Assembly: GCA_951406725.2 (NCBI GenBank)
Contig: OX597823.1
Coordinates: 37,820,001-37,884,000 of the forward strand
DNA: 64,000 nucleotides
Direction of reading: 5' to 3'
Source of the DNA: Octopus vulgaris
Taxonomy: Eukaryota
Below the pieces are notes generated by a model. The model searched no databases, was not told where the DNA came from, and saw only the letters and a program-made list of their open reading frames with translations. Positions 3,439 to 62,223 of this stretch are shown here, one piece after another (within the stretch, counting starts at the first letter, position 1; every line of letters begins with the position of its first letter). A program made the translations under genes and the position numbers.

Positions 3439-3660
3439 CCCTTTTGCTACAATATTTCTGCTGAAATACACTACCTTTGTTTCAATAGATTTTGACAATG
3501 ATGAAGAATTTACTAAAATAACTTTGTCATCATTAACTGGTGTTTAAAACATAAATTAACATGAAGTTTTAAAGGAAGATTTTAATTTAGATCACTTTTA
3601 AAACATAGAGTCTGTTCCTTAAAACCAAAGTATATTTTGGGTAATTTGGTATCAGAAGGG
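3439..3660. mobile_element. piggyBac-like MITE
   Basis: TTAA on both sides; imperfect TIRs cccttttgctac / gtatcagaaggg; no ORF. Confidence 0.65.
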
Positions 3661-3946
3661 TTAAAGTAAGAAATTTTAGGATTTCTTCACATTAAAATGA
3701 GAATATGATAAACATTTATTTATTCTGTGCACAATTGTAGTACATTTTAATTACTTGCCATCTAGGGGTCAGGGGTAATCAACCAGTACAATTAATTTTA
3801 GGAAATAGAAGAACGGGCTTTGAGGCATTCTTGGTGTTTTTTCCTCAAAGACATCAGTGGAATAAGTAAAATAGTAGTAATTAGGAATTGAACCATAATG
3901 CTAGCGACTTGCCAGGGCTCAACTTCTTTCACCATGAACCTTAATA

Positions 3947-5793: not shown

Positions 5794-5844
5794 CACATAA
5801 TCATGGTGTGGTAGATGGAGGCCACCAATGCCATAGTTTATCAC
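5794..5844 (-). CDS. P4HA: P4HA-like paralog B exon VINYGIGGLHLPHHDYV (intact HxD iron ligands)
   Basis: atcctcag acceptor, GTAAGT donor, 51 nt, phase 0-0; matches canonical VANYGxGGxYxPHxD. Confidence 0.92.
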
Positions 5845-6459
5845 CTGAGGATGAAGGGGTATAAGATGACAGATAGGTAAGAGGAGGAAGATGAAGAAGT
5901 GGAGAAGTTATGATAATAGTAATGATTTTATTTATTTATACAACTAAGTGCAAATGTGTTGAGAGAAAAGTTAGGCATTAGAGGAATCAGATGATGCATG
6001 CAAGAGAGAAGACTACAATGGTTTGGACATGTGTGATGTGCATAAATGAGAACAGCGTATAAAGAAGTGCCAATTGCTTAAAGTGGAGGGAACCTGTAGA
6101 AGAGGGAGACCCAAGAAGACATGGGTTAATGTAGCGAGGGCTAATCTTAAGATACTGAGCATCATGGAGGAGATGACAATAGACTCAGATGTCTGACAAT
6201 ATAAGGTTCTCGAGAAGCCCTGTGCACCTCAGTCCACTCTGTAAGGTGGTTGATGTTAGGAAGGGTATCCAACCATGGAAAGCATACCATAGCTGATAGT
6301 AGAGCCTGGTGCAGTCCCTTGGCTTGCCAGCCCCTGTCAAGCCATTCAACCCATACTAGCATGGAAAACAGACATTAAATGGTGAAGCTGATGATGATGA
6401 TGATGACAATGATGATGAAGATGATAACAATGATGCTGATGCTGATGAAGATGAAGATA

Positions 6460-6506
<47 letters not shown>

Positions 6507-6952
6507 TGATTTTATTTACCAACACAGTGACTCTGACATTGAAGTATTGAATCAATGGTTTGTGTCCCTGAACAAGGAATACCATGCTTGTTGTGTGAAT
6601 TAACCTGAGGGATTACTTCACCAACACCACCACCACCAACAACACCAACACCACCACCACCACCTCCACCACCACCACCACTATTACCAAAATCATCACA
6701 ACCAACAAAAACAAATCATCATCCTCATCTTTGTTGTTGTCATCTTCATCGTCATCATAATCATCAGTCATCATCCTCATCGTTGCTGTGATTATCATCA
6801 TCGTCGTCATCGTCATTGTCTTTGTCATCGTCATCATCATCATCATTATCATTATTGGTAGCAGTAACGAAACCAACATCAGCTGCTTCAATATCCATAT
6901 AATCAAACTATCATTGAGACTCAACACACTTTTTCCTCCTCGCCCTCCCCTC

Positions 6953-7049
<97 letters not shown>

Positions 7050-7143
7050 ACAGATGCAACAGCAGCAACGTTTTCTTTCCTAACATCATTAAGTAACATA
7101 ATATTCATTAGTATTCATAGTTAGTAAGTGTGAAAGACATGTA

Positions 7144-7655
7144 CCGTAAATCCTCGAGCATAATCCGCACTTTTTTCCCAAAATTTAAAGGTCAAAATCC
7201 CTAGTGCGTACTATATACGAGGTTAAAAATGAAAATTATTTTCTAAGCAGTGCCCGAGGCTCTATTTGCTGTCCAGCAATGTTTATTCAGAAGCATTTTG
7301 TGATGTCGGGCGCGAAAATACCTTAAGCTAAACCTGAAAGCAATGAAGTCATAAAAGAATCATCCATAACTTGCAGTAAGCAACATTTATTAAACGCTAT
7401 TACTGTTATTTCTTTATTTTCTGCAAACAAAATGCACAAAAAAGCTACACGTTTGCATTATGTTATATATACAATAATAATAAAGGACGTTACCAGATAC
7501 AGTTTTACAAATGAAGAACGTTATATAGACCTCCTTGACTCAAGTTAGAGAAGGGGGTGCGTATAATAATCAAGGTTTAAGTTTTTCAGAGTTACAGCCC
7601 CTAAAAATCCCCTGCGTATTATACTCAAGGGTGGACTATACTCAAGGATTTACGG
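7144..7655. mobile_element. pogo/Tc2-like MITE
   Basis: TIRs ccgtaaatcctcgagcataatcc / ggactatactcaaggatttacgg, flanked by TA. Confidence 0.75.
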
Positions 7656-7768
7656 TAAATACTTCACAAATATTAAGAAACAAACCCCTTTCTTTTGTAT
7701 TTGTTAATTTTATTATTTATTATTGTGTGTGTGTGTGTGTGTGAACAAGTATGTGCACCTATTCTTAC

Positions 7769-7883
7769 CTGAAATAACTCGCTGTTGGTGTCTTTAAGTT
7801 TGAAATCAGTCTGCAATCCTGTAATCAGTTTGATCCGTCGACACAAGACTTCACTCATTTTATCTTCAGCTGGAAGCCATGTG
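7769..7883 (-). CDS. P4HA: P4HA-like paralog B exon (S)TWLPAEDKMSEVLCRRIKLITGLQTDFKLKDTNSELFQ
   Basis: catccag acceptor, CAG|GTAAGA donor, 115 nt, phase 2-0; WL...RRI..ITGL...E.LQ motif. Confidence 0.92.
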
Positions 7884-8820
7884 CTGGATGATGACACAGT
7901 GATTGAAAAGGAAAAACAGAAACAAAGAATTTCAAGATTCCATAATCTTGTTAGTGGTATAGTGAATAAGAACAGTATTACCATTCCTTTTGAAATAAAA
8001 CTTTTCAAGATGAATTCAATGCTCTTGTTATCATGATATTCCAGAGATACACAACATATACACACACACACACACAATATATATACATATATATGACGGG
8101 CTTCTTTCAGTTTCTGTCTACCAAATCTACTCACAAGGCTTTGGTCGGCCCGAGGCTATAGTACAAGACACTTGCCCAAGATGCCACACAGTGGGACTGA
8201 ACCCAGAACCATGTGGTTCATATGCAAGTTACTTACCACACAGCCACTCCTACGCCTATATACACATATACATATAAATAAATTATCATCATTTAACGTC
8301 CGCTTTTCATGCTTGCATGGGTTTGACAATTTGACTGAGGACTGGTGAGCCAGAAGGCTGCACCAGCCTCAATCTGATCTGGCAAAGTTTCTACAGGTGG
8401 ATGCCCTTCCTAACACCAACCACTCTGAGAGTGTAGTGGATGTTTTTATGTGCCACCAGCATGAGGGCCAGTCAGGCGGTTCTGGCAACGACCACGCTCA
8501 AAAGTTGCTTTTTACGTGCTACCTGCATGGAAGCCAGTCTGGCAGCACTGGCAACAACGACACTCGAATGTTGTTTTTCACGTACCACTGGCATATGTAC
8601 TGGTAAGGCAATGCTGGCAATGATCACACTCAAATGGTGCTTTTTATATGCCACTGGTATGGGAGCCAATCCATGGCCCTGGCAAAGATCATGCTCAGAT
8701 GTGCTTTTAACGTTCCACTGGCATGAGTGCCAATCAAGCAGTAGTGTCATCGGCCACGTCGGTGATTTTGATTTTGATTTCACTTGCCTCAATAGGTCTT
8801 ATATGTATGTATGTATGTAT

Positions 8821-8860
<40 letters not shown>

Positions 8861-8928
8861 GTGTGCATGTGTTAAAGATGATTTTTCCTATTAAGAATGC
8901 TGTCAATAACATTCCAGATTTATCTTAC

Positions 8929-8999
8929 CTTTGGCTGATCCTAGCATTACTTTTAGTTGTTCCTTTGGAGTCCTTGCTTCCAACATCTGACCGTGTCAG
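8929..8999 (-). CDS. P4HA: P4HA-like paralog B exon LTRSDVGSKDSKGTTKSNARISQ(S)
   Basis: ttgcag acceptor, AG|GTAAGA donor, 71 nt, phase 0-2; conserved RIS motif. Confidence 0.88.
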
Positions 9000-11900
9000 C
9001 TGCAATATATATATGCAAACTAATTTTTTTTTTAAAAATAATTTTTTTTTTTTTGTAATTGAGTGTTGGTTATGAGAGTGGTTGTTGTTGCTGTGGTGGT
9101 GGTGGTTGTGGGGATTATCTTGAAGGTAATATGTGAAGTAGTGGTGCTTATTTAAGATTATAGTGATATTTGATGGTGGTGATGGTAGGATGAATAGTGA
9201 TTAATATTTAAATGTCTGTAGTGAAGGATGTTGTGATAGTGGTGGTTGTGGTTGTGATGATGGTAGTGGCGGATGTTATGATGGTGATAATTGTTGAAAT
9301 GATAGTGCTTGTTGTGATGAAGATGATTGTGGTAGTGGTGATGGTGATGATAGTGGTTGTGGTTATGGTGGTAATAGTTGTGAGTGTAGTGGTGGTAGTA
9401 GTTGTTATGATAGTGATTATTGTGATGGTAGTGTTTGTGGTAATGATAGTGGTTTTGTGATGGTAGTAGCTGTGGTGATAGTAGTCATTGTTGTTTTGGT
9501 GGTTGTGATGGTGTTAACTGTTGTTGTTGTGCTGATGGTAGTAGTTTTCTTATACTTAAATTTAAAAAAATGGTAAAGTTTCTATTCAAAGGAGACCATA
9601 TGGCATGAATCAATCACTACAGGGTAATATACAGAGAAGTCAGTGTTTCCAATCTTTGAATACCATTTTGTGTCTAAGAACCCAACATTTAACACTCAAC
9701 AACTGATTCAACTTTACTCAAATTCCAGGACATAGCTCATTTTTGTAAACATAATCCTCATCATTGTTCGACCGTGGTTGAGACAATGGAATTTACTATG
9801 TTACGCCAGACTTCACGGTCCATCATAGCATTACAGAGGTCCTGTTGCTGGATGCCTGTATCCCTGGAGATTACATCAGGGTAGGAGAGTGTGTGCCCTC
9901 TGGTATCACGAGCAGATGGCTTCCAGAGGAGAAGAGTAGAATTTACCTAGTTTTCAGCTCTACAACAATGTCCATCAAACTGGACTCTTCTACCTTTCAC
10001 AACATTCTGGAACTATTCATTATTATGTTGGCTGAAAGTGGTTGGCTCAGTTCCTGTGTAACAAAACAACATCATCATTATTATCATCGTTTAACATCCA
10101 GTTTCCATACTGGTATGGATTTGACTGTTTGACAGGAGTTGGCCAGCTGGAGAATTGCCTGGGCTCATTTGTCTGTTTTGATTTCAAAATGTTGATGATA
10201 CTACTATAACTGTCATATAGGCAGTGAGCTGACAGAAACATTAGCACGCCGGGTGAAATGTGTAGCCGTATTTCGTCTGTCGTTACTTTCTGAGTTCAAA
10301 TTCTGCCGAGGTCAACTTTGCCTTTCATCCTTTTGGTTAACATCCATTTTCCATGCTGGTATGGATTTGACTGTTTGACAGGAGCTGGCCAGCTGGAGAA
10401 TTGCCTGGGCTCCATTTGTCTGTTTTGGCATGGTTTCCCTTAATGCCCTTCCTAATGCCAATCACTTTACAGAGTGGGCTGGGTGCTCTTTACATAGCTT
10501 CAGCATGGATGCTTTTCAATGTGGTGCTGGCACGAATGCATTTTAAGTGGTGCCAGCTCAAGTGCTTTGCATGTGGTGCTGGCACAAATGCTTTGTACAT
10601 AGTGCCAGCATGAGTGAAATTTATGTGGCACCAGTACGAGACTGATTTAAATGGTCACCTTGTCTCTATTTGATTTTTGTTAAGCATTCATCATCATCAT
10701 CGTTTAACGTCCACTTTCCATGCTAGCATGGGTTGGACGGTTCAACTGGGGTCTGGCAAGCTCGAAGGCTGCACCAGGCCAGTCAGATCTGGCAGTGTTT
10801 CTACAGCTGGATGCCCTTCCTAATGCCAACCACTCCGAGATAATAATATTTGCTTCTCTGCAATACATGAATAATTTTGATTGATTTAAGTGATTGTGCT
10901 CATTACATGAGCTGTGCTTGGACTTCATTATCAAGGACTTTGTTATCAGATCAAAGCTATGGAAACTGGAGATAACTACATTTCAGCCTCAATAATCTAA
11001 ACATTAATTATCTATATTTCAGATTACCCAAACAAGATTTCAAAGTTTGTGAATAATCTAATTCACCATAACGCAAACTCAAGAATAATACTGGTGCTAT
11101 CATATCGTATTTTGTTTACAATAATTAAAGTGAATTTGAATTACTGATGAACATGTAAAAATGTAGCACCAAAGGGGTATTACAGACACTATTGCAACAA
11201 TTATCAAAAGTACCTTATGTCTGTTGGTTTTCTTGGTCATCTTATTTGGGTTCCGTTGGTCACTTACAACAGTGTTAAAAAAAATATAAACATGCAAAGC
11301 AGTGACAATATACAAACTTAAGATTAATTCAAATATCTTTAGAGATATTTGAATTCATTACAGGTTTCTCACTGCAGTTAGTCATGAAGAAAAAATTCTC
11401 ACTTAAGACAAAAAAAAAAAAATGTCGGTTCACATCACTCTCTATTGGACGGAAGGATGTGTTTTTATCTTAGGTGAGAAATTTTCCCCTGCAACAACAT
11501 GCAGTGAAAAGCCTTTTCAGATTTAAATATTTTTCTAATATACTTGAACTGATCATAAAACATTGGAACCATGTTAACTTGTTTTTGATAGTAAGAGTAC
11601 TTTATGGAATAGTGGATAGGGATAAAAATATGTTTGAGTTATTATTTGTCTATCTTTTATCCTTTATCTTTTACTTGTTTCAGCCATTAGACTGCGGCCA
11701 TGCTGGGGCACTACCTTGAAGAATTTTTAGTCAAATGAATCAACCCCAGTACCTTTTTTTTTAAACCTGGTACTTATTCTATCAACCTCTTATGCTGATT
11801 GCTAAGTTACAGGGACATAAACACACTGATACCAATTATCAGGAAGTGAAGGGGGACAAACACAGACATAAAGACACACACCCATAGATTTACATATATA

Positions 11901-12442
11901 TATATCGGGCTTCTTTCAGTTTTTGTCTACCAAATTTACTCACAAGACTTTGGTTGGCCAAAGACTATAGGAGAAGACACTTGCCTAAGGTGCCACATAG
12001 TAGGACTGATCCCAGAACCATGTGGTTGGGAAGCAAACTTCTTACCACAGTCACACATGTGCCTACATAACTTGGGCATGCTGATTTCAGCCAATTTTAA
12101 CAAATTAATTATTGGTATGTTGGTATACAAAAGCTTAATCAGTGCAGTAATTATGTTCAGTCTGGCTTCTTTGTCTATGTTCATATCAATTATCTGAAGA
12201 ATTATTTATTTAAACAAAATATTTCTCTTTTGTTTTATGTAGATACTCAAGATCTAAATGTATAGGATTTATAAGAGTCTTGACTTTCAGAAAAAGGTAA
12301 GTGTTACATGTATTTTAAGACAGACGATAGATAGAGCATTGTAGATATAAACTCTTAAACATTTCCTAGTTTTTATTTTCTATAAAAATCCTGTAAAAAT
12401 GGTTTAACTTATAAAAAAATGAATGTACACAATAGTATTTAC

Positions 12443-12604
12443 CTTGCGAACTGTTGTATTCTTTATAGAAGACATTTCTGAATCTGTGACGACATCATGA
12501 TAGAGAACCACCAGAGGGTCATAGTGTAGTATTTCTCGTTTGAAATTCAAATAAGGTACAAGTCTCTCATGGAATGAGCAGACAACATTGTTGGAGATTT
12601 GTGG
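12443..12604 (-). CDS. P4HA: P4HA-like paralog B exon PQISNNVVCSFHERLVPYLNFKREILHYDPLVVLYHDVVTDSEMSSIKNTTVRK
   Basis: AAG|GTAAAT donor; E....DP.VVLYHDV.TD.E motif aligns without gaps to paralog A exon 48113-48277; acceptor is a weak A-rich AAG. Confidence 0.82.
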
Positions 12605-13042
12605 CTTTTTTCATTTTTTTTTGTAGAAAATGTTTAAAAAATAAAAACAAATACAAATAAGAAACAATGTGTACCTGTGTATATATGAAGGTATGTATGC
12701 ATTTTTGATGTACATGCATGATTGTGTGTGTGTGTATAAAAATATACACACATAAACATATATGTGGTTGTATTTACATGCAACTGCTAGGATGACATTT
12801 CTGAATCTGTGACGACATCATGATAGAGAACCACCAGAGGGTCATAGTGTAATATTTCTTGTTTGAAATTCAAATAAGGTACAAGTCTCTCATGGAATGA
12901 GCAGACAACATTGTTGGAGATTTGTGGCTTTTTTCATTTTTTTTTGTAGAAAATGTTTAAAAAATAAAAACAAATACAAATAAGAAACAATGTGTACCTG
13001 TGTATATATGAAGGTATGTATGCATTTTTGATGTACATGCAT

Positions 13043-13077
<35 letters not shown>

Positions 13078-13132
13078 AAAATATACACACATAAACATAT
13101 ATATGGTTGTATTTACATGCAACTGCTAGGAT
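12471..13132. repeat. Near-identical tandem duplication (12471-12793 / 12794-13132) containing the acceptor and most of the exon
   Basis: Both copies run gacatttctgaatc...caactgctaggat; they differ by a few substitutions and TG-repeat length. Confidence 0.92.
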
Positions 13133-14343
13133 GATTTTTCATTATCCAATAATATATTTAAATGAATTCTAGTTTCTAACTTTTGAAGGCTCAACATCTT
13201 ATTAAATATTTTTCTGTAAAACAACAATTTGTTTTAGAAAAATTTAAAATTTGAGCATTTTGGTGAACCCTTTTTCTGTAAAACAGGAAATTTTTTCCAT
13301 TTAAATTTCTTGTTTTTTAAGATTACAGTATATAATTTATTATTTAGATCATCGTTCAAGTACCATTGCCATCGTTAGCCCAATTTTTTGTTCACCTCCA
13401 TACTACATTGAGGTGATTGTTGGTTTTTATTGGGGGAAAAGGTCACCACTGATTTTTAATTTATATTTTATAATGTACAGACAACATATCTGATTATTTA
13501 GCCTCAGATTACTCCTGAGCAAGCAGACCTATGATCAAAGATGTTTCAGCTTGACCAGCCATTCTGTATTTCTGATACAGTATGTCTAGAAATACATCAT
13601 CAAATGTATCTTTTCTAAGAGACAATAGGTAGAGATTTGAGGACAATCTGGCTGCTATTTCTAACAGGTTGAGTGATCATGCTGTCTCACATAATAACAC
13701 CTGTACCTCCTTCAGTTCATGCTATTTGGGTTACCCCTGAGCTCAGCGAAAAGGAAGAAAAGTACTAATTTAATGAATTAACAAGAATTCGGACAGTGTT
13801 AATTAAATTTGCCCTGGCAATGATTACCGGAAAGAAGAGACAAGACATAACCAGAGAGAAGTCATGACCCGGTGGATGGTTTAACTTCTCTAGTGTTGTG
13901 AGATAGAGAGGAAAAGGTAGAGTAGACAGGAAAGAAAGGGTAGGAGGAAGAGTGTAAAAGAGACAGCTGAACGAAATGTGAATATGAAGAGGTTCTTGAG
14001 AAGATAATGTTTAAAAAATTTTATCATTATTATAATTATAATTATTAATTATTATGTTATAAAACTTATATGAAAATAAAGGTTATAATATAATGAATAT
14101 TTTAACATAAAGTATATGCAATTTTAAACAAGTTTAAGAAATGGAAATTAAAAAATTTTTAAAAATGATATTTCTAATGCACGGCAAGGTTATGGAATTA
14201 CAGTCAAGGCCTGATTGAGCTTGACTCAACATTTTGCTGGGTCAAGCACGTTTAGTGCTTGACCAATATTGTATTTTTAAACACAGCCTGTCCATAAGAG
14301 ATTTTAACTTCAGACTAAAATTGCAGTAACTTGCCTGCCAACA

Positions 14344-14377
<34 letters not shown>

Positions 14378-14426
14378 TAACAATAAAGATGACAATGACT
14401 TTTGCATGTCTGTTAACTTTAAGTAC

Positions 14427-14650
14427 TTTTTCAGTTGCGTACAGCTGATGATTCACCAGACACAAACTTATATCAGCTGTAGGTATTAATTTCAGCAGAA
14501 TATTTGATTCCTCTGAACAATGATCATTTGGCCAATATGTGCTAGAATCTTCTAGAAACGGCTCCTGTGATAATTTGGTTTCTTATCAAAGGGATTTTTC
14601 ATCTGATATATCTGATTTATTCTTTTTAAATCTACTGAATATTTTAGTAT
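14427..14650 (-). pseudogene. Putative decayed duplicate of the P4HA-B LCR exon
   Basis: Pyrimidine-rich cattcag acceptor in phase 1, AAA|GTACTT donor in phase 0; frame reads DTKIFSRFKKNKSDISDEKSL**ETK...SLCLVNHQLYATEK with TGA TAA at 14583-14588; shares a ~35 bp downstream intronic motif with the 15434-15597 exon. Confidence 0.4.
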
Positions 14651-15433
14651 CTGAATGGATGTAGGAGGTGGACATGATGGACGGTTAGGCAAGAAGTCAA
14701 GGTAAGTGGAGCATTAAGTAAAGAGATAAGGCATACCTTATGTCTTTAGTGCACACATTAGATATATATATTGCAAGTAGGGGGAAAACAATATATGGGA
14801 GGGTTGAATTCTTTACAAAACTAGATCTGATGTAGGATTGAGACACTAACAGTGACAACAATGATGATGATGATGATGGCACTGAAGACAGCAACAGTCT
14901 CTACAATGGAGAGAACTGGAACTGGAAACTCTAATGATGACAATGATGATTATGAAGATAATGATGAAGATGGGGATGACTATATTGGAAAGAACTGGAA
15001 AATGTAAGGATGATGATGATGATGATGATGAAGGTAATGATGGTGGTGATGATGGTGATAATGAAGAGGATAAAAATGACAATGACAGTGATGATAACAA
15101 TGAAAATGCCAAGAACAATGACAATGCTGATAATAGTAATAATGATTTCAAATGTTTTTTCAAGGGCAGTTTGGGAGAGGGGATAAAGTCATAGTCATGG
15201 CCAATGCTAGTCACTGTCTGACTGACCCAGAAAGGATGCAAGGCAAAGTCAACCTTGGCAGGATTTGAACTCAGAATGCAGTGACAGGTGAAATACTGCT
15301 AAGTATTCCATCTAGTGTGCTAGCAATTCTGCCAGCTCGCCACCTGCTGATGATAGCAATAATGATAATTATAATTATGAATATAATCATAACAATAAAG
15401 ATGACAATGTTGTTGCATGCCGATACCAGTGAC

Positions 15434-15597
15434 ATCTAACTGAGCCCGGCACAATTTCTCAAAGTTATAGTAACCTATCCATTTTGGTGGTGGGCGAATC
15501 AATGGATGCAAAACTGGTTTGTTACTAGATTTCTGAAGATAATTCCGTAATTCTGTCTGCAACTGATTGTCATGGATACCACTCCCGTTCTTCTTGA
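15434..15597 (-). CDS. P4HA: P4HA-like paralog B exon (V)KKNGSGIHDNQLQTELRNYLQKSSNKPVLHPLIRPPPKWIGYYNFEKLCRAQLD; 3' boundary uncertain
   Basis: tttttcag acceptor in phase 1; FEKLCR matches the YExLCRG hallmark; donor is either weak phase-0 GAT|GTCACT (15434) or phase-1 G|GTATCG (15427). Confidence 0.75.
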
Positions 15598-16489
15598 CTG
15601 AAAAATATCAACTCTTTAATTCCTTAGGAAGTTCTGATGATGCCAAAATCATCACCATAACTTTGACAAAGTTGTTTATTTCAATACATTGCTGTTGTTG
15701 TTGTTGTTTATTTGTCATTTCTCTAATTGTAGGGGTTAGTAATGTTACTATTGTGTTGTTTGATACACAAGGGGATGCTGAAAAGTTCCTGGCTTTAAGG
15801 GTATGGGGAAAGGCTTGGTTGGAGGCCTAACCTTCTGAGTTCTTTTACTGGGCTTAGTAAAACTGAAGGACTGCTGCAATAAGTGAGTGAATCTGAGAGG
15901 CAAATACTTTGAATGATTAATTATCTTCATGTATTATCTTTTGCCCAAAGCCAAGGATGAGGTGGGGAAGAACGATCTTTGAATGTTGGGCTTCACAGAA
16001 GCAATGACATATGCCGTGCTTGAGAAGGACCTGTTAAGCCAAGTGAGATTGTAGTCATGGCCAATGCCAGTGTTGTTTAACTGGTCCATTAAAAGTACCC
16101 TTCAGTTGTTGGACAATATGCTGTGCATGTGAATACCTGTTGAATAGGATGAAATCATAGTCGTGGCCAATGCTAGTGCTGTCTGACTGGCACCCATACT
16201 GGTGGCATGTAAAGAGTACTCTTCGAGTGTTAGGCCTCATGGAGATAGTGATGTCAAGCTGAGTGAGATCATAGTCATGGCCAATGCCAGTGTAGCATAA
16301 CTGGCCTGTTAAAAGCACCCTTCAATCGTTGGGTCATATGCTATGCTTGTGAAGATCTGTTGGACCAAATGAAATTGTTGTTGTGGCCGATACCAGTGCC
16401 ATCTAACTGGCACCTGCGCCAGTGACACGTAAAAAGCCCTAAGAAAGCATTGGGTAGTGAAAGTTGACCAAGACTCTTGATATTATACC

Positions 16490-17000
16490 AATGGTCACTT
16501 GTTGCCTAAAGATCAACCTCGTCCAAGGCATCTGTTGACCCCTCCCCACTCAAACAAATGGAAACATCATGAAAATTCATGGACTGATCTCGGAGGACCA
16601 CCACTGAACAATTGATGAACTTGTCGATATAACTGGTATGTCCAGGAGCTCCTGCCAACGAATTTTGAGTTATGAATTGTGAATGGAAAGAGTTGTAGCA
16701 AAATTTGTGCCTCACTTGCTCATGGAAGATCAAAAGCAGTCACAACTGAATGCATGTTGTGAACTGAAAGAACAGTTGGAAGTTGATCTGGGCCTTTTTC
16801 GAAGGTCATCACTGGTGATGAAAGCTGGTGCTGCAGAATTTGCATATGTAGAAGAGGTGAAAAAAAACAACAGTGGCATTGAAAGGCATCACTTCACAAG
16901 AGTTCCAGAACTGCTCCGAAAAGTGGAAAACACATCTAGACTGACGCATTGCTTCAAATGGATAATACTCTGAAGGCAATAAAAGTGTAAACATGTAAAA
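16490..17000 (+). mobile_element. Partial second copy of the deleted mariner family seen at 3947-4777
   Basis: Colinear high similarity to about 4220-4720, including the same internal deletion junction. Confidence 0.78.
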
Positions 17001-17325
17001 CTCTCTTCTGCTTTTAATTATCTGAAATCTTCTTTTGAGAAAGGAAATGGTTTCTAACAAAGATACAAAGCTCCTCATCAGAATGTAAATAAAAAAACAA
17101 ATTCACATTTTAAACTTGAGAAAAGTCTTGTATATTTTCACTGTTCCACTTATAGATAGTATTTTTAATGTATGAATTAGCTAGTTGATTTCATTTTATA
17201 AAAACCCTAGCTTATATGTATGCATGTGTGTCTATAAATGTGTGTGTGTGTGTGTGTGTGTAAAACAACTTTTCCCTAAAATTTTTTTATTAGGTTTTCA
17301 TCAATTCATTCAAAATTGTACTCAC

Positions 17326-17371
17326 CAATCAACTGTTGGATAGAATCAGCTGATAGATCTGGTCTTCCAAG
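17326..17371 (-). CDS. P4HA: P4HA-like paralog B small exon LGRPDLSADSIQQLI
   Basis: ttttgtag acceptor, G|GTGAGT donor, 46 nt, phase 0-1; positional counterpart of paralog A exon 53486-53537. Confidence 0.75.
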
Positions 17372-19280
17372 CTACAAAATAATGTAAAAATCAGCCAAAT
17401 ATTTTCATTGAATCCATTCCATCACATACTGTACTATTTAAGAAAGCACATCTCTATCATTTTATACATCTCTAATGTTAATCTTAAGTTATTCTTTTCA
17501 GATAATGATGGCCATGATTTAAAATAGCTTCATCTTGGGCAGACATCTTAATCTTGGATTCTGAGGCAGAGATCTTGATCCTGTGACTTATATATCTTGA
17601 GCATTACCAGTGGATTAGTTGAATTGGTTGAGTATCAGACAAAAGGCAGCTCCATCAAAGAGATGAGCTTCAGGAAAACAAACTTCACAAATGGCAATCA
17701 CACAAACTAACATGCTCTAGGTACTGCAGCATTGATACATGCCTATGTGCCACCTACCCAACTATACTGATCCCTCTACACAGAAGATATTAGCAGAATG
17801 TGGGTTTTATATCTAAAGTAGTTCATCCATTCCACAACAAAAGACCAAGCACTCTAACCTGGTCAAATAAAAAAGCATTATGGCAGGTGTTGTATGTGTT
17901 GCTAACATAGCACACACTTTTAGGGATCACTTCCTCTCATCTCATTTCTGGGTGAGGTTTACCATACTGCTCATTAACTATTTCAATTCCTCTCTACTGG
18001 GAGATTTGGACCAATTCAGACCCAATTGTTTTAACAGGCACTAAGGGTCCATCACCCTGGATGCTAGCTGGTGTGGGTATGTCTCTCCAGGTGCCAAGTA
18101 GCAAATCTTCTGACTTGTGGCTGATCAAACTGAGGATTTCAGATTGATCCAAATAGACCAGAACTCCATCACAGCCACATTCATTATCTACCTCTTCTAT
18201 GATGTAGAGGTTGTCATAGATAGATTGCCAAGAATCACACAGGCCTGCATGCTTCTGGTCACACTATATCAATGGTAAGTGTCAATCTCTTCATGAGCAC
18301 CTTGGCCAACATTTTAAATTCTACATGCTTTGCAGAATAATAAACCAGAAATAGTCAATGATATCACCTTTGTTTGCAGCCTTCTTCAACTGCACCACCA
18401 CTACCTGGTTAACACAACTGGAAATGTCCCCAGTCTCTTAGTAATTGTGATAGATGTCTGCTAAAATACATGTATCCTTAAAACTAACAACAGACAAACA
18501 ATCCAAACAAAGTGATTTATTTTTTTTTACACCTGCCACTCACTAGCAAATGTACCTCAGCTACTGTAATTGTTTTTTGTAAGATTCCACCTCTTCTACT
18601 AAGAATTATGGAAGGCTGTTGAAATAGGTGCCAATGTCCACCATTTCCAGTTCACAACTACTCCCTGTTAGACACCAGCATACATCTACTTAGAATCAAG
18701 TAAATGTTTGTTGCTGCCCACCAAAAATATAACTGTGTCTTTGTTGTCATGTGACATCTCTATCATCAGGACCTATTGAATATCATTCCCACCTTCAGGT
18801 ATAAGAGTACACATCTTATCTTTGGTAAAGCAACTTTTGAGCTTTACATAGGAAAAATTCCACAGTGTCATTTTCACTACTAGTACATTGTTTACCTTAT
18901 TTGATGCTTTTTTAAGGTCTCCTCTTTTAATTAGGTAATTCCTTCTCTAATCTGTTGCTATGCTGGATTGGGAAAATCTCCCCAAAGCCCACTATTTATA
19001 TAAAGCTTTCACCCTTTTTCTCATTTTTTTGTAACTTTATTAAGTCCACTACCACATGTATTGTAACCCTTATTTATATACCGTTGTAAGTTTGAAAGGG
19101 TCTTGGTACCGATAATAAAGAAATTTATGTTGTTTTTTTACTACTGTCCTCATTGTTTTTGAGTCCTTGTGGCCAATAAAAAGACAATTATTATTATTGT
19201 TAATGTTGTTGTTGTTACTGTTATGTGTGAATTCTTGACAAACAAACAAATAAAAAAAGACAAAATTGCTGCACAATTAC

Positions 19281-19609
19281 CTTATAAAGTATGGCTGCCA
19301 TTGACATATGGGCTTTAGTGAGTAAATGTTGTGATGCTGTGTCTGTACCAAGTATGCTAATGGTATAATTATACCATTTCACAGCTTCCCAGTCCATTTC
19401 CATGTCCTGGGCCACATCAGCAATGCTAAGACATTGTGTCGTCTCTAAAGCCATAGTTCTCTTTCCCAGCAGATTCCCTCTTGCCAGTTGATACAGTGGT
19501 ACTTGGTATATTTCTACAATCCGTAGAAGTCCAAGTGATGCCCCCTGAAGGTCGTCTGTGTCTGGCCACATTTCTGAGTCTTGTATGAATTTGGCAGTGT
19601 GTAAGAATT
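19281..19609 (-). CDS. P4HA: P4HA-like paralog B exon (K)FLHTAK...WPDTDDLQGASLGLLRIVEIYQV...WEAVKWY...AAILYK
   Basis: gttatag acceptor, AAG|GTAATT donor, 329 nt, phase 1-0; P..DL.GA..LLR...Y motif of the N-terminal/peptide-binding region. Confidence 0.9.
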
Positions 19610-20656
19610 CTATAACAGAAGAATATGTTAAGTAATGGCATTGCTCCAGCATGGCATCACCCAGTGACTGGAACCAGTAAAATAGTAAATGCAAAATATG
19701 TAAATAAGCTGGATATTTAAGAATTTTAAGTAGTGGCAGGATTAGAAAATAAAGCTACTTGGTTTAATATTGGTTTCAAATTTTGGCACTAGGTCATCAA
19801 TTTTAGGGGAAGAAAAGTCGATTATATTGGCCCCAGCATACAACTGATACTTATTTTATCAACCCCAAAAAGATGAACGGCAAAGTCAACCTTGGCAGCA
19901 TTTGAACTTAAAATGTAAACATGGATGAAATAATACTAAACATTTTGTTTGGCAAGCTAATGATTCTGCCAGCGTGCTGCCTTTATGTCCAGTAACATAA
20001 TCAAGAATGATGCGGAGTTACTTCTTTTAACTTCTCCTCTCATACTGATATTTACTATCAACTACACCACCCTTGCACATCCTTCACTACATAACCTTCT
20101 TCACTCATCTCCAACCACTTATTACTCTCCTCCCAATCTCCTATGAATTCATCCAGCCAACCCTCCTCATCCTCAGTCTGTATTCTCTCTTATAATCATC
20201 TTCTTGCACCTCGAGAGTATACTCTGACATCTACCAACTTATCTTCTTCCCAGATATCCACATTGCCCTTACATAATGCAGGGTAGCCATGTATTTCTTC
20301 TATAACAAGACACTTGTACCTGTCCCACTGTTATACTTTGACCTCTCCACACTTGGCATAAAGCCACCCCATCCTCCCCTACAACCCCCCTCAGCTGAGG
20401 GGATTTCTTCTTTCTCTTTGTTTTGCAAGTTACTTGGTAACCTCGCTAGTGCTGGTGTCATAGCAAAAACAAAAACAAAAAAACTGCTCTATACATTCTG
20501 TAAGGTGGTTGGTAATAGCAAGGGCATCCAGCCATAGAAACCATACCTGAGCATATTTTGGAGCTTTACTCAGTCCTCCTGCTTGTTGGATCCTATCAAA
20601 CAATTCAATCCATACTAGTATGGAAAATAGTCATTAAATGATGATGATGATGATAT

Positions 20657-20891
20657 ACCTATTTCTTTACTACTCACAAGGGGCTAAACACAGAGAGGAC
20701 AAACGAGGACAGACAAACGTATTAAGTCGATTATATTGACCCCAGTGTGTAACTGGTACTTAATTTATCAACCCCAAAAGGATGAAAGGCAAAGTCGACC
20801 TCGGTGGAATTTGAACTCAGAACGTAGCGGCAGACGAAATACTGCTAAGCATTTCACCCAGCGTGCTAATGTTTCTGCCAGCTCGCCGCCT
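20657..20891 (-). mobile_element. tRNA-derived SINE (abundant family; other copies near 10219, 32605, 35637, 43897-44137)
   Basis: Head aggcggcgagctggcagaa...gttctgagttcaaattcc and core ctttgcctttcatccttt(c/t)ggggt(c/t)gataaa recur many times in the window. Confidence 0.8.
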
Positions 20892-21897
20892 GAATAATGA
20901 TGATACACTATCAGCTACCATAGCTGGTGTGGCACCTCATGAAAATGTAGGAGGACATAATTGTTTTTTTTAGCTAAGCAGCACATTCCCCACCAACTTA
21001 AACTGTTAATGAATTTGTTATATATTATTAAGACGAACCCTACACATTCTTTATCATTATTTACCATAATACATTCAAATATTAAATCTATTTATCTATA
21101 TTTACTGTAAACAATGGTGACATTGGAGATTCCACTTTCCAAATGTACATTCAAATGACAATATACAACCAATCACAAAAATGATAAGGACAACTGATTA
21201 AAAATAGAATATACAAAATTATAATGTTCAACTCATTTGCAATTCAGTTGCATTCCTCAACATTTTGTGTTCAAATTCTACTGGTGTCAACTCAGACTAT
21301 CATCTTTATTTTGGTTCAATAAAATGAACATACATGTCAGTCATGTTGTCATCATTATCATCATCACCATTGTCATTATCATCATCATAAGCATTGGCAT
21401 CCTTCTGTGTTCAGAATCTGATTCCACTGAATTTATATCCACATTGTCTAAATTGACTGGATAAGCCTACATGTAACCTGACTTTGAGGACATGAGAAAT
21501 GGGCCCACAGTTGTGTTCAGGAATCCTTGTTTGTTGGCCTCCATCCTGTCCATGTACCATTTGTTAGCCTCCTCATTATTGCTACTTTCAAAGAAATCAC
21601 ACCCAACATGGCATTTTCTTTTGTAGAGTTGACTATCTGCTACATCAATTGACCAACTTTAGTTGATCTTTGTATCGCTACCTTAGTACTGTTGCTTTTA
21701 CTATTTAGATTTAAAGACAAGATCTGCTTCTAACTGTAATGTCTTTCTTTCCTCAACATTTGAGTCTGCTGATGTTAGTTATTTCTCTTGCTTGCTGGTT
21801 TGAAATACCCTCAAGAGATTTATTTGTCTTCTAATTAGAAGGATAATCTCAGTTATTTGAAGTTTTTCAATCCTAATATTATGTATGTGACACTCTA

Positions 21898-21971
<74 letters not shown>

Positions 21972-21976
21972 AGTAT

Positions 21977-22230
21977 AGGAAAGAATGGAGCTGAGCGAAG
22001 ATTTAACAAAATTCCTTTATTTTATTTTCGACATATGTTTCGAAGTCTGCAAAATTCTAATTCCGAATGAATAAGGAGTCCATTATGCAGCTTTCTCTTC
22101 AGGAAAATCCAGGAACTGCATAATGGACTCCTTATTCATTCGGAATTAGGAATTTTGCAGACTTTGAAACATATGTCGAAAATAAAATAAAGGAATTTTG
22201 TTAAATCTTCGCTCAGCTTCATTCTTTCCT
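21977..22230. repeat. Long inverted repeat (114/115 bp arms, 25 nt spacer), Penelope-like terminus, next to (TA)n
   Basis: Arms 21977-22090 and 22116-22230 are reverse complements with about 2 mismatches and 1 indel. Confidence 0.92.
22024..22108 (-). ncRNA. Type I hammerhead ribozyme (Penelope-like minimal/dimeric type)
   Basis: Minus strand reads attttc-CTGAAGA-gaaagctgca...tgcagacttc-GAAA-catatg-TC-gaaaat: 6-bp stem I, intact core, palindromic stem III acatatgt, GUC cleavage triplet. Confidence 0.72.
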
Positions 22231-23558
22231 TGCCCTATGGTTGTAACAAATATATATATATATATGCTGCAATGCTGAAATGAATTGATAGATTCACATA
22301 TAACACATATATACATCTTTCTTTTTTTTTTTCCTCTGATGAAATTATACTCATGTTACATAAGTGTAAATTTAATGTACAAATTTATAATTAAATCATT
22401 GAGTATTAATTGAAATGGCTGCAAGAAGTGAAGATGACCAATTTGTTAATAATAAGCAATTATTAACTTCCTTATCTCCATTTTCTTTTAAATGGATATA
22501 AACTATATTCTTAATACATACCTATTGTTTTAAGGGAATTTCATTCCCCCAAAACACTAAGTATTGAACGAGTATCTCCTTTGATGCAACCATCCCTTCA
22601 TGAGGTTAACATATCTTCTAATTAGATACACACATACGCACACACACACACACACACTAACAGTATTTTCCAGCATACAAGCTGATGTAGTATATAGTGT
22701 AAATATTCAAACATTCTCACTAACTTTCCAAACTCTGCTACTTTTCACATGAAATTTTTGATCCTGCTAAGTCATCTTGGTGTATAAGTCAATCTACTCA
22801 TTCTGACTGTAAATTTTGGTCTGAAAAAGTTCAACTTGTATGCTAGACAATTCGATATGTGTATGTATATATGCACATATTTTTGAAAGCAAAGTTTTTA
22901 TTTTTTCATCACATATTTAATCTTATTTAATTAAAACTAAACAAAATTTTTTACAAAATCCATCATTGACCTTAGTAGGATTTGAACTTGTAACACAGAG
23001 AGCTGGAGCAAATACCACAAGTTATTCTATCTGATGCAGTAATAACTTTGCCAGTTTGCTGTTATCATATTATAATTAATAAAAGACAGATGGAAAGATG
23101 GTTAGAAGTATTATGGATCCTTGGTTACATTTCACCATCTTAGTCTCATTTATTTGTGGCTTAGTCTGAATAAGGTCTTTGGGGATAGAGAACAGAGGGG
23201 AAGAAACCACAACCCATGGCTTGTGGATAAGTGGTGTACTCATATATTGAGTTATCTCTAGAGTGGTTGATCTGTCTAAATGTCTTGCAATAGAGTGGAA
23301 TCTACTAAAGGTACTCAGTGGTAAAAAGGTTGTGTTAAGTCAGGCAATAGTCTACTACTCAAAAATATGCACACTTATATAGGCTTAAGCACTGTTTTTG
23401 TCTAACCAATTTTGCTCATGATGCTTGGGTTGATCTAGGGTCATACGAAAATACATATACATAGTGTTGTGCTGTGGGATTGAATCTGGATTGACATTAT
23501 TGCAAACTAAAGTTCTTAAGCACATGAAACTAAATGTCAATTTTATTGTGGTACTTAC

Positions 23559-23734
23559 TGTTTGCAAATGTTTCTGACTCTGGTGTAACATGTTCAGTCC
23601 TTAATATCATTTTTAATATATCCTTTATTTGGCGCCATTCATACAAGAATCTGTGAACAAGCTGATAACTATTCACTGGATTTCCTACTTGTCTGCCTTC
23701 TTGGGACAACTTGTGTTCAGTTTCCACAACAAAT
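23559..23734 (-). CDS. P4HA: P4HA-like paralog B coding exon 2 (R)FVVETEHKLSQEGRQVGNPVNSYQLVHRFLYEWRQI...FAN
   Basis: cactgcag acceptor, A|GTAAGT donor, 176 nt, phase 2-1; NPVN.Y.L..R...W motif. Confidence 0.9.
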
Positions 23735-24769
23735 CTGCAGTGAATTATTATGTTACATAATGGATGGAATCAGAAAAATCATGTTTTATTTATCTGTTTA
23801 TAAACTTAATGTAACGAAATGCTGGGTTAGATACTGTTAGTTTCATTTGTCTACTTTCTGAGTTCAAATCACACTGAGATTGATTATCTCTTTCACCTCT
23901 TCAGCATTGTTAATATAAATATTTGTCCCCACTTAAACATGGATTATCTGTTAGAACAAACTGTACTGTGGTAGATACCATGAGAGAAACTCTCATATTG
24001 GCTTTTGGTGCAAAATGCGCTCTTGTTTATATTGCTAGCAGGGAGATAAATTCATACCCTCTCCAGTGCTGAGACCATCAGATCACGTGATTTTGACCTT
24101 TCTTGGTCTTGTCAATAATGGATGCTTGACCACTGGAGATAGGAGTAACTCATCTCTAGCCAGCAATATATAGACAACAGTGCCAGAACAGGCACTGCTG
24201 TTGTGATTAACCAGTGAGCTTGTTAAAAATATATATATTAGTGACAAAGGCAATATAAATACTGAGAGGTAATATTTATCCCCACATGAATGTGAATGAT
24301 CTGTTAAAACAAACTTTACTGTGGTAGATAATACGAAAGACACTCTTATATTTTGCTTTTGGTGCAAAATACACACTTCTTTATATCACTAGTGAGGAGA
24401 TAAATCCCTAAAGTATCAAAATGATAAATTATCATGTTCATGGATAACAGTGACTATCAAATCAATGATTTTGATATTAATTCTTAATGCCTTCCTGAAG
24501 ATTTGAAAGTAAATATATTACTGACTGTTGAATTTTGTCTTCTGATTAATGTGTGTTGATAATACACTTAATACATTGAGGTAAAGGGACTCTGACACTC
24601 CTGTACTAGCACTAGGCTTGTACTCATTTTCAGCTGAGAGAGACACACACACACAAACACAGACAGAGGAAGAGAGGATGGATAGCTAGATAGATACAGA
24701 TGGAGAGAGAGAGAGAATAGATAGAAAGATAGATAGATAGATAGATATAGAGAGACACAGACAGACAGA

Positions 24770-24819
<50 letters not shown>

Positions 24820-24934
24820 GAATAAAAATTTATATATAAAGAATGTGAAATACACGAAGGGACGAACACGGAAAACAGACAAGTCATTCGAAGCCTTCAA
24901 TCTTCAGTCAGAAACCGAATCATCATGGCATATT

Positions 24935-25085
<151 letters not shown>

Positions 25086-25271
25086 GGGGATAAATAGATA
25101 GATAGATAAATAGATAGATAGTAGACAAATAGACAGGCTGACAAAATAGACTGATACACAGATAAACAGGTGGATAAAAAGGTAGTTAAACAGAAAGACA
25201 GAAAGAGAGGGATAGATGGACAGACAAGACTGACAGACAGATAAATAAATATGTGGACAGGTTAGGAGAGA

Positions 25272-25312
<41 letters not shown>

Positions 25313-25413
25313 AGGTTGGTAGATAAGGGAGGAGTGGAAAGAAAATGTGTGTTTGGATGTTTATAAATATTTCCCGGTCAGTAAAATGAATTAAGCAAAT
25401 TTTTTTTTCTTAC

Positions 25414-25625
25414 CTGATAATATCGTTCATATTTTGGCCACCAATATCTCGAGATTCAATACCATTTTGACTTTGAATGAATTTCCCGAGAGAACTCAAT
25501 AAAACCAATTCTAGATTGGCTAAAACTTTCAGTTTCACAACAGACGAGAAGACCTCAGCATTGATATTCAAGGCTATTTGTGAGGACCACACCAGTAAAA
25601 AAGCAGTGACTGTCTGCTTGAACAT
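25414..25625 (-). CDS. P4HA: P4HA-like paralog B first coding exon: signal peptide + EVFSSVVKLKVLANLE
   Basis: ATG at 25625, hydrophobic leader ending INA|E, E.FSS...L..L...E motif, AG|GTAAGA phase-2 donor. Confidence 0.88.
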
Positions 25626-33819: not shown

Positions 33820-33899
33820 TTAGATATCTTCAGCATTTATTTTTAATCCACATGGTCGTTGGAACACCTGGTCTACTTCATGAATCCATTTATTGGCAA
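33820..33899 (-). CDS. P4HA: P4HA-like paralog A last coding exon (V)[25 protein letters not shown]
   Basis: tttctag acceptor in phase 1; NKWIHE..Q.F.RPC motif; TAA at 33820-33822. Confidence 0.93.
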
Positions 33900-36669: not shown

Positions 36670-36766
36670 CCCATTTTGATCCTACCGCAACTGGACAATT
36701 AGCATGTAATGTCCTGGGATCTCGGCGCTGGTTTCTTTTCAAATTGTACCAAAAGACTGCTGAACC
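36670..36766 (-). CDS. P4HA: P4HA-like paralog A exon GSAVFWYNLKRNQRRDPRTLHANCPVAVGSKW
   Basis: gtttcag acceptor, G|GTAAGA donor, 97 nt; distal His and 2OG-binding Lys retained. Confidence 0.94.
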
Positions 36767-37902: not shown

Positions 37903-37971
37903 CTTTATTACAGGTATCTGCACATTAATCCTTGGAAAAATTGTGGCTCCTCCAAGAGTAACATTGGACAT
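37903..37971 (-). CDS. P4HA: P4HA-like paralog A exon MSNVTLGGATIFPRINVQIPVIK
   Basis: cttctag acceptor, AAG|GTGGGT donor, 69 nt; MS.V..GGAT.FP motif. Confidence 0.93.
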
Positions 37972-39706: not shown

Positions 39707-39787
39707 ATAAAGCATCCATGTAGCTATACGATCTCCAGAACCAATGAGGAATTGACTGGCAGATTTTTCCAACTGTTCCTTGGATTC
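39707..39787 (-). CDS. P4HA: P4HA-like paralog A exon ESKEQLEKSASQFLIGSGDRIATWMLY
   Basis: tatccag acceptor, GTGAGT donor, 81 nt; GDRIATW..Y motif. Confidence 0.93.
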
Positions 39788-40258: not shown

Positions 40259-40309
40259 AAAATAATCAACACGTGGCTCATGCATTCCTCCTAGACCATA
40301 ATTCAGAAC
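40259..40309 (-). CDS. P4HA: P4HA-like paralog A exon VLNYGLGGMHEPRVDYF (HxD changed to RxD)
   Basis: gttctcag acceptor, GTAAGT donor, 51 nt; CGT codon at 40271-40273 where paralog B has CAC. Confidence 0.92.
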
Positions 40310-42310: not shown

Positions 42311-42425
42311 CTGGAGTGGTTCTGCATTCGAAACAAAAACTTTAAGCTGAGTGTTTAATCCAGTGATACTTCCAATTCTGTGGGATAACCTGCGTAAAAC
42401 TGGGTCTGAATCCCATAACCAAGCA
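42311..42425 (-). CDS. P4HA: P4HA-like paralog A exon (R)AWLWDSDPVLRRLSHRIGSITGLNTQLKVFVSNAEPLQ, GC donor
   Basis: gttgcag acceptor; 115 nt, same as paralog B exon 7769-7883; ends CAG|GCAAGG. Confidence 0.9.
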
Positions 42426-43409: not shown

Positions 43410-43477
43410 CGTTGACTTATAATGTCTGTTTTCATGCCCTGAATGATGTCATCATCACCAACTTTGGAGCTGTAAAA
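43410..43477 (-). CDS. P4HA: P4HA-like paralog A exon FYSSKVGDDDIIQGMKTDIISQ(R)
   Basis: atctttag acceptor, CG|GTAAAA donor, 68 nt, phase 0-2; aligns with paralog B exon 8929-8999 (S.VG..D...ISQ). Confidence 0.82.
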
Positions 43478-48112: not shown

Positions 48113-48277
48113 CTTTTGCTGAGATTCTTCCAGGATGTATTCGATTTCTTCATCTGTAATGACATCATGGAAAACAACAATTTTGGGTTTATAACTCATG
48201 ATCTCCTCTTTTACTCTGGAATAATGGTTCTCTGTTGGCCGCCAGATACATTTCAGTTGGGCTCTTCTAGAACTTGA
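48113..48277 (-). CDS. P4HA: P4HA-like paralog A exon SSSRRAQLKCIWRPTENHYSRVKEEIMSYKPKIVVFHDVITDEEIEYILEESQQK, GC donor
   Basis: aattacag acceptor; LKC...KEE....P.IVVFHDVI.D.EIE motif; ends AAG|GCAAAG at the codon where paralog B has AAG|GTAAAT. Confidence 0.9.
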
Positions 48278-50262: not shown

Positions 50263-50414
50263 CAATAGATCTTCCCCTCGACATAACGCTTCATATTGGC
50301 TGCTGGTGGAATTGATAGGTTTTTCAAATATTTTAGTTCTTTTGCTCTCAGGAATACTTTTCAACTTCTTTTTCAAAAATGCCTTTTCTCTTTGACAACC
50401 TTTGTCATTTGTTT
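50263..50414 (-). CDS. P4HA: P4HA-like paralog A exon (K)TNDKGCQREKAFLKKK...SSQYEALCRGEDLL
   Basis: ctcattcag acceptor, TTG|GTAATT donor, 152 nt, phase 1-0; YEALCRG hallmark. Confidence 0.93.
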
Positions 50415-53485: not shown

Positions 53486-53537
53486 TTATTTTCAGACACT
53501 TCTCAATGTAATCCAGTGAAACCCATGGCATTCCATA
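53486..53537 (-). CDS. P4HA: P4HA-like paralog A small exon YGMPWVSLDYIEKCLKI
   Basis: tttttag acceptor, A|GTAAGT donor, 52 nt; phase 0-1 links the flanking exons in frame. Confidence 0.83.
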
Positions 53538-54509: not shown

Positions 54510-54756
54510 CATTGAATAAGCACTGGCAATTGTTCGATATATTTGGTTCTGTTCTACAGTTCCTTTCTCAATTTTTGACTTTCTGTAAAGTTCATCCAGT
54601 GCCAAAAGCCATAATATTTCTTCATAAGCCATATCGTGCTCATTAGCTATTTCAATTAACTTTAGAGCATCATTAGCTGTCATTGGTTCTGTTTGAGTGT
54701 TGGCAATACGACCCTGTAGCAGCTCAGTTAAATTCAGAGAATAAATATTTTGTAAT
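54510..54756 (-). CDS. P4HA: P4HA-like paralog A exon (R)LQNIYSLNLTELLQGRI...IASAYSM
   Basis: ctttcag acceptor, ATG|GTAAAT donor, 247 nt, phase 2-0; RLQ..Y.L....L..G motif. Confidence 0.92.
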
Positions 54757-58187: not shown

Positions 58188-58272
58188 CTAAACAAGCCTA
58201 AAGCTGCTTCAGTAACATCTTTTTTAGTTGGCCACAATTGTTCTTGAACCATTTTGTATTCTTTGATAAATT
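58188..58272 (-). CDS. P4HA: P4HA-like paralog A exon (E)FIKEYKMVQEQLWPTKKDVTEAALGLF(R)
   Basis: gtgacag acceptor, AG|GTAAGA donor, 85 nt, phase 1-2; PT..D...AA..L.R motif. Confidence 0.9.
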
Positions 58273-58488: not shown

Positions 58489-58655
58489 CTTTAGTGTTGT
58501 TATTGTGTTCGCAGTTGTCACAGTCTAATTTCACCATCATCTCACTCCATCTATTGTGAATCCGATATAACATGCGATATGCATTCAATGGGTTAGTTGT
58601 GTAGTTTGTCATATTTCCCAACTTTGTGTTTTGTGTTTGTGTTTCATTCAAGAAG
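58489..58655 (-). CDS. P4HA: P4HA-like paralog A coding exon 2 FLNETQ...NYTTNPLNAYRMLYRIHNRWSEM...; first coding exon not found in window
   Basis: tatttcag acceptor, AAG|GTTAGT donor, 167 nt, phase 2-1; NPLNAY...R....W motif. Confidence 0.9.

Positions 58656-59151: not shown

Positions 59152-59204
<53 letters not shown>

Positions 59205-60104: not shown

Positions 60105-60184
<80 letters not shown>

Positions 60185-62164: not shown

Positions 62165-62223
<59 letters not shown>

Follow-up and report, generated by a model that had tools for sequence, protein, structure and literature searches.

Two described systems come closest to a collagen hydroxylase chain that sits in a complex without catalysing. 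CRTAP and SC65/P3H4 are non-catalytic partners of the prolyl 3-hydroxylases and have no oxygenase domain, and the mixed PHY-1/PHY-2/PDI tetramers of C. elegans hold a second alpha chain in the complex, PHY-1 and PHY-2 both being active. For the prolyl 4-hydroxylases (P4H) themselves the iron-binding motif is His-x-Asp...His, and in the structure 7ZSC the residues Cys311 and Cys529 of P4HA2 are bonded to the active sites of PDI, with Cys294 and Cys504 forming an internal pair (PMC9676403). The target proline is surrounded by Arg93, Tyr140, Arg161 and Trp243 in the algal enzyme (PMC2847220), and the peptide groove of the human P4HA1 PSB domain is made of ten residues and is of the Tyr type (PMC12433258). 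Human P4H is inactive as the H412E and H412D/D414H variants, and the triad variants tested (Table 1 of that paper) keep their affinity for poly(proline) (PMC2767507); human AspH, by comparison, is still active after a His ligand is changed to Ala (PMC8252765).

We report a P4H alpha gene of Octopus vulgaris, here gene A, in which the first of the Fe(II)-binding residues is Arg. The gene lies in a window of 64,000 nucleotides (assembly GCA_951406725.2, contig OX597823.1, positions 37,820,001 to 37,884,000 of the forward strand), in which a second P4H alpha gene, paralog B, is also found; the features of both are collected in the table. Among the open-access papers, as judged by their listings, we found none that deals with this gene or with a P4H alpha chain that is naturally dead, and the database label of the Octopus A proteins is 'procollagen-proline 4-dioxygenase'.

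Table. Features of gene A and paralog B in the 64,000-nucleotide window (position 1 is its first letter).
Feature	Positions	Strand	Basis and content
Gene A exon 1 in window (N-terminal dimerisation domain)	58489..58655	-	splice reconstruction
Gene A exon 2	58188..58272	-	splice reconstruction
Gene A exon 3 (PSB/TPR-like region begins)	54510..54756	-	splice reconstruction
Gene A exon 4	53486..53537	-	splice reconstruction
Gene A exon 5 (Cys294 equivalent)	50263..50414	-	splice reconstruction and cysteine mapping
Gene A exon 6 (Cys311 equivalent, PDI a' contact; GC donor)	48113..48277	-	splice reconstruction and cysteine mapping
Gene A exon 7 (hairpin loop)	43410..43477	-	splice reconstruction
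Hairpin Arg site, gene A (algal Arg93)	43421..43423	-	ATT = Ile; Ser in Argonauta, Arg in cuttlefish; counted from exon start
Gene A exon 8 (GC donor)	42311..42425	-	splice reconstruction
Gene A exon with the first-ligand Arg, between exons 8 and 10	40259..40309	-	translation VLNYGLGGMHEPRVDYF
Catalytic-loop Tyr site, gene A (algal Tyr140)	40280..40282	-	CAT = His; Tyr in O. bimaculoides
First Fe(II) ligand site, gene A	40271..40273	-	CGT = Arg; aligns with human P4HA1 His412, P4HA2 His430, algal His143
Gene A exon 10 (Arg161 equivalent kept)	39707..39787	-	splice reconstruction
Gene A exon 11	37903..37971	-	splice reconstruction
Gene A exon 12	36670..36766	-	splice reconstruction; distal His 36704-36706 and 2OG-binding Lys 36674-36676, both kept
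Gene A last exon (Cys529 equivalent, PDI a contact; stop codon)	33820..33899	-	splice reconstruction and cysteine mapping
Paralog B, exons between	1907..25601	-	3' end outside window
Paralog B HxD exon	5794..5844	-	51 nt; VINYGIGGLHLPHHDYV; HxD intact, His at Tyr140 position

The substitution had been noted in a first-pass annotation made from the letters alone, and both the codons and the homologs bear it out. Gene A reads GGA GGA ATG CAT GAG CCA CGT GTT GAT at this site, that is GGMHEPRVD, and a phmmer search of the PDB aligns the Arg with the first ligand His, which lies in YEPHFD of human P4HA2 (7ZSC) and in YEPHYD of the algal P4H (2JIG). In an alignment of 196 of 233 proteins, those of alignable length, 191 rows besides those of the three Octopus species have a residue in the column, and in 188 of them it is His. 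When the 64-kb window was scanned on both strands with a profile, two exons of the HxD type came up, that of gene A and that of paralog B, and no alternative His-bearing exon for gene A. Reads of four of the 24 listed runs were compared over 38250-41110: contigs of X6 (39953-40587, 635 letters of which 4 differ) and of X12 (40011-40369, with 11 differing letters) bridge the CGT codon, the sites listed for them not including 40272, so that they carry no weight for that base, and run X15, guessed to be RNA, has no coverage of the exon 40259-40309.

The thirteen exons of gene A run from 58655 down to 33820 on the minus strand and have a single in-frame splice solution of 475 amino acids with no internal stop, so that the annotated open frame stands, as do the distal His (in TLHANCPV) and the Lys (in GSKW) that it had listed as kept. 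All acceptors are AG and the donors are GT except for two GC donors, at 48113 and 42311 (-), among the 12 introns in the window. The translation is identical to residues 36-510 of the O. vulgaris protein CAI9728978.1 (P0003), and the first exons gave no match at 58001-64000 and lie past the window end. The model of CAI9728978.1 begins 32 residues after the start of the O. sinensis model and has no hydrophobic N-terminal stretch, a later start that is probably an annotation truncation. Three long open reading frames, at 30085-31137 (+), 27032-28662 (-) and 60073-61713 (+), lie between genes A and B and upstream of the first in-window exon of A; the first looks to us like a transposase of the Tc1/mariner kind, the second like a different DNA transposase and the third like the reverse transcriptase of a LINE.

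The product has the domains of a P4H alpha chain, with PF08336 (P4Ha_N) at 75.2 bits against a cut-off of 25.3, a phmmer match to 2YQ8 at E 1.4e-11, and the 2OG-FeII_Oxy_3 double-stranded beta-helix domain PF13640 at 36.5 bits against a cut-off of 27. Its best PDB match, by sequence and by fold, is 7ZSC; an AlphaFold model made for the 99% identical A protein of O. sinensis has a pLDDT of 82.5 and a pTM of 0.81 and matches 7ZSC at E 9.9e-22 with a TM score by target of 0.89, and A is thus predicted to fold normally. All four conserved cysteines, the two that bond PDI and the internal pair, are kept in each of the five cephalopod A rows. Human P4HA1, P4HA2 and P4HA3 (7ZSC, 2YQ8) share with Octopus A the domains, the catalytic fold, these cysteines, the Asp, the distal His and the Lys, Tyr and Thr that bind 2OG; they differ from it in that Octopus A has Arg for the first iron ligand, Ile for the hairpin Arg, His for the catalytic-loop Tyr in two species and no Tyr groove in the PSB domain.

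The same Arg is present in O. sinensis (XP_029640955.1, GGMHEPRVD) and in O. bimaculoides (XP_014787034.1, GAMYEPRVD, with Tyr three residues upstream), the two sequences being gene models. His is kept in Argonauta hians (GAB1603014.1, GGITKPHVD) and in the cuttlefish cluster P0005, in which all five of the proteins that cover the site, out of seven members, read GGMYEPHVD. A quick tree built on 54 hand-picked rows joins the Octopus A proteins and their Argonauta and cuttlefish orthologs in one clade (SH-aLRT 100) with Argonauta sister to Octopus, and the A protein P0001 is 62% identical to the Argonauta protein and 47% to the cuttlefish cluster. On this distribution the His-to-Arg change is derived and common to the three Octopus species. 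Because Argonauta and cuttlefish have His, the Arg arose in the interval between the split of Octopus from Argonauta and that of O. bimaculoides, the latter dated at about 34 My (PMC10700109). The comparison of orthologs in other octopods, which had been put forward as a check, therefore separates Octopus from Argonauta and cuttlefish, and the option of a null allele in gene A falls with it. A sequencing or assembly error, or an allele private to this genome, is likewise ruled out by the O. sinensis and O. bimaculoides records. No further octopod ortholog of A was present among 23 shorter-protein matches, the best identities being 35-62%, and no close relative of A among the 45 loci of a metagenome scan.

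The iron ligand is not the only active-site residue to have changed. With algal numbering counted on the 2JIG alignments, the positions of Arg93 and Tyr140 hold Ile and His in O. vulgaris and O. sinensis, Ile and Tyr in O. bimaculoides, Ser and Thr in Argonauta, and Arg and Tyr in cuttlefish. The hairpin Arg is thus lost in all four octopod sequences, and of the four residues that cage the proline O. vulgaris and O. sinensis retain two each and O. bimaculoides three. The iron triad reads Arg-x-Asp...His in all three Octopus A proteins in place of the HxD...H of an active collagen P4H, and the Tyr, Thr and Lys that bind 2OG are all kept. Over 11 catalytic and substrate sites, counted in the 187 of 196 rows with every site filled, O. 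vulgaris and O. sinensis deviate at three each and O. bimaculoides and Argonauta at two each, and among the 183 non-octopod rows 169 have no deviation, five have one and nine have two or more. Judged by its sequence, Octopus A is therefore a member of the P4H alpha family that does not qualify as an active collagen P4H (EC 1.14.11.2). Erosion has reached all four octopod sequences, by different changes, and this points to an ancestor that could already do without catalysis. Outside the cephalopods, a P4HA2-like protein of the fish Misgurnus anguillicaudatus (P0034) has lost the hairpin Arg and has His for the loop Tyr, as in O. vulgaris A, with its triad intact.

The cephalopod orthologs provide a graded series for comparison, in which cuttlefish are intact, Argonauta has an eroded cage with an intact triad and Octopus has a broken triad. 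The cuttlefish cluster, which includes Acanthosepion pharaonis CAE1278078.1, keeps all 12 tabulated catalytic positions, unlike Octopus A. The triad of the Argonauta protein (P0002) is also intact, unlike that of Octopus A, and hides the changes of the hairpin Arg to Ser and of the loop Tyr to Thr, so that it is possibly a cryptic pseudoenzyme of a kind that motif checks would miss.

Since mutants of human P4H at the same site are inactive, we infer that A is without hydroxylase activity, and we consider it probable that A is an enzyme-dead P4H alpha chain conserved for a non-catalytic role. If A is dead and kept for such a role, we would expect with good confidence that it is bound to PDI. 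A would then fold and be held soluble by PDI in the ER through its kept cysteines, and may act as a structural or regulatory PDI-bound partner; it could fill one alpha slot in mixed alpha/alpha'/PDI tetramers with an active alpha chain, or it could hold a lineage-specific client.

The alternative that best survives, though we think it unlikely, is that A retains a weak or altered 2OG-oxygenase activity, with iron held by two ligands, the Asp and the distal His, and a substrate other than collagen. The equivalents of Asp145, His227, Lys237, Tyr134, Thr, Glu127, Arg161 and Trp243 are unchanged in all octopod rows, the catalytic part of the protein is constrained as much as the rest (a ratio of 0.25 to the neutral expectation, see below), and a nemertean homolog, P0101, has the His-to-Arg change as its sole deviation at the 11 sites; the active His-to-Ala variants of AspH (PMC8252765) show what a 2OG oxygenase can tolerate. 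Set against this, keeping eight given residues has a chance of about 0.25 at the neutral per-codon rate and so is weakly informative, and human P4H tolerates little at this site, both H412E and the ligand swaps being dead (PMC2767507). Moreover, Arg differs from Ala in its length and positive charge and should either occupy the metal site or repel the metal, and Arg93 has gone as well, with Tyr140 gone in two species.

How far A is still under selection bears on the pseudoenzyme reading and on the next alternative alike. Between O. vulgaris and O. bimaculoides the A protein shows 21 differences over 510 positions, 20 of them in the 475 residues covered by the window, where about 76 would be expected if the gene were neutral. 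This expectation comes from mutating the coding sequence of the window at d = 0.08 in 1000 runs, and is a count of protein differences against a genome-wide proxy, not a codon model; across their genomes the two species are 92.4% similar (PMC6472339). The constraint is spread over the protein, with 5 differences against 14.6 neutral in the N part (ratio 0.34), 5 against 21.1 in the PSB part (0.24) and 10 against 40.6 in the catalytic part (0.25); for the protein as a whole the dN/dS-like ratio is about 0.25 by this proxy with genome-wide neutral divergence. The result stands for any d from 0.04 upwards and is lost at d = 0.02, where 20 differences would be neutral. Relative-rate tests find no acceleration of Octopus A, whether against Argonauta (39 and 45 private changes, p 0.59) or in nine further comparisons (p 0.08-1.0), with p 0.42-0.67 against cuttlefish over three outgroups. 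Running counter to this, the 53 columns of highest conservation contain two of the 21 differences, about 2.2 being expected, so that these columns are not depleted of change; the two, however, are both next to the lost His in the catalytic loop, the other 43 conserved columns of the catalytic domain being identical between the two species. By the proxy, gene A is likely to have been under purifying selection after the loss of the His.

That A is a functionless gene in slow decay, its open frame owed to chance or to a recent loss, therefore appears quite unlikely. The active site has eroded separately in each lineage, with Y140H and a Ser-to-Asn change beside the distal His in O. vulgaris and a Gly-to-Ala change in O. 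bimaculoides, as decay would have it. Expression of A is also putative: Logan is not among the sources of the three Octopus A proteins, and accounts for six of the seven members of the cuttlefish cluster, and no RNA data set was listed as carrying the sequence. Yet a stop-free frame was left in 0.3% of the neutral runs at d = 0.08, every domain has a quarter to a third of the neutral change, and no indel separates the three Octopus proteins over their shared span. The first-pass suggestion of a pseudoenzyme gains from an Arg present in three species, an open frame, purifying selection as read by proxy and kept PDI cysteines.

A third alternative is that A serves as a collagen-binding chaperone through its PSB domain, as the first-pass annotation had also proposed. 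The human triad variants that keep poly(proline) binding (PMC2767507) and the constraint on the PSB region are in its favour. By the approximate mapping that a low-identity alignment allows, however, none of the ten groove residues of human P4HA1 (PMC12433258) is kept in Octopus A and one of the ten in cuttlefish, and PF23558, listed for the canonical P4HA rows, is not listed for the A protein P0001. The proposal is weakened by this to the point of being very unlikely, and collagen binding by A through the usual Tyr groove is itself unlikely. The degeneracy of the groove is shared by the cuttlefish and Argonauta orthologs, and in the same approximate mapping the groove is absent too in the triad-intact mollusc relatives of A, which places its loss before that of the His. 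The whole A clade probably does not engage collagen in the vertebrate manner.

Hardly credible is the earlier idea that the His three residues upstream, present in O. vulgaris and O. sinensis, replaces the lost ligand. In O. bimaculoides the same Arg goes with Tyr at that position, so that the Arg came first and the later His cannot have made the loss possible; in paralog B the upstream His stands next to an intact HxD, and in human P4H the ligands cannot be swapped between positions (PMC2767507).

As to the origin of the codon itself, the change from CAT to CGT is one of A to G, and might be a once-edited codon that has become genomic, for which we find no support. The five cuttlefish proteins that read His are Logan sequences, which makes majority editing unlikely there if the short contigs are transcripts. 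Editing of the A-to-I type cannot restore A from G, so the first-pass remark that editing could not turn this base back follows from ADAR chemistry. Neither 'P4HA' nor 'prolyl' was found in the extract of the editing supplement of PMC8382921.

Paralog B has an exon of the same length with an intact HxD, as annotated; the description of B as a twin of A is misleading. Its full-length ortholog P0234, on which the identity was measured, is 32% identical to A, its ortholog P0039 falls outside the clade of A in the quick tree of 54 picked rows, and the exon borders of A and B match in the catalytic region. On identity and tree position, B is an old neighbouring paralog and not a recent twin. It keeps the hairpin Arg as well as the HxD, and the positions of its distal His and Lys lie before window position 1. 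The catalytic-loop Tyr is replaced by His in B, whereas its ortholog P0234 has Tyr, and the activity of B may thus be altered too. A truncated tandem copy of an exon, at about 12741-12960, lies upstream of the full exon 12418-12637 (-) of B, is identical to it at 185 of 220 bases and ends in a stop.

Loss of the triad has occurred elsewhere in the family, with broken triads in five of 183 other homologs: Lineus longissimus XP_064639928.1 (P0101), Argopecten XP_069140090.1 (P0120), Potamilus KAK3609794.1 (P0121), Ostrea XP_048770312.1 (P0122) and P0153. The nemertean Lineus has the same His-to-Arg change as Octopus A, and in the scallop (Argopecten), freshwater mussel (Potamilus) and oyster (Ostrea) proteins the triad is broken by other changes. 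Each of the five is a single record, and they keep the conserved cysteines as Octopus A does (one row being gapped at the last Cys) and are placed elsewhere in the tree than Octopus A; the losses look independent. A wider scenario, which we offer as tentative and think doubtful as a whole, is that in octopods a mollusc-type P4H alpha paralog became a PDI-bound pseudo-subunit, catalysis having begun to fail before Octopus and Argonauta parted, since the hairpin Arg is lost in both, the lineages then shedding different residues and the dead chain setting proline hydroxylation in mixed tetramers, a course that would have been repeated in molluscs and nemerteans.

Pseudoenzymes are common in expanded families, and the surprise in meeting one here is moderate. 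As proposed for A, CRTAP and SC65/P3H4 are non-catalytic relatives within a hydroxylase complex; they are without the oxygenase domain, whereas in A the domain is complete and carries point changes. The PHY-1/PHY-2 pair of C. elegans likewise places two alpha chains in one complex, both of them active there. The alpha chains of collagen P4H are regarded as enzymes, so that a constrained chain that has been without an iron ligand since before the split of about 34 My (PMC10700109) is a natural test of the use of an alpha chain as a non-catalytic scaffold. If the wider scenario, with its repeated conversions, is true, dead P4H alpha chains would form an unrecognised regulatory class.
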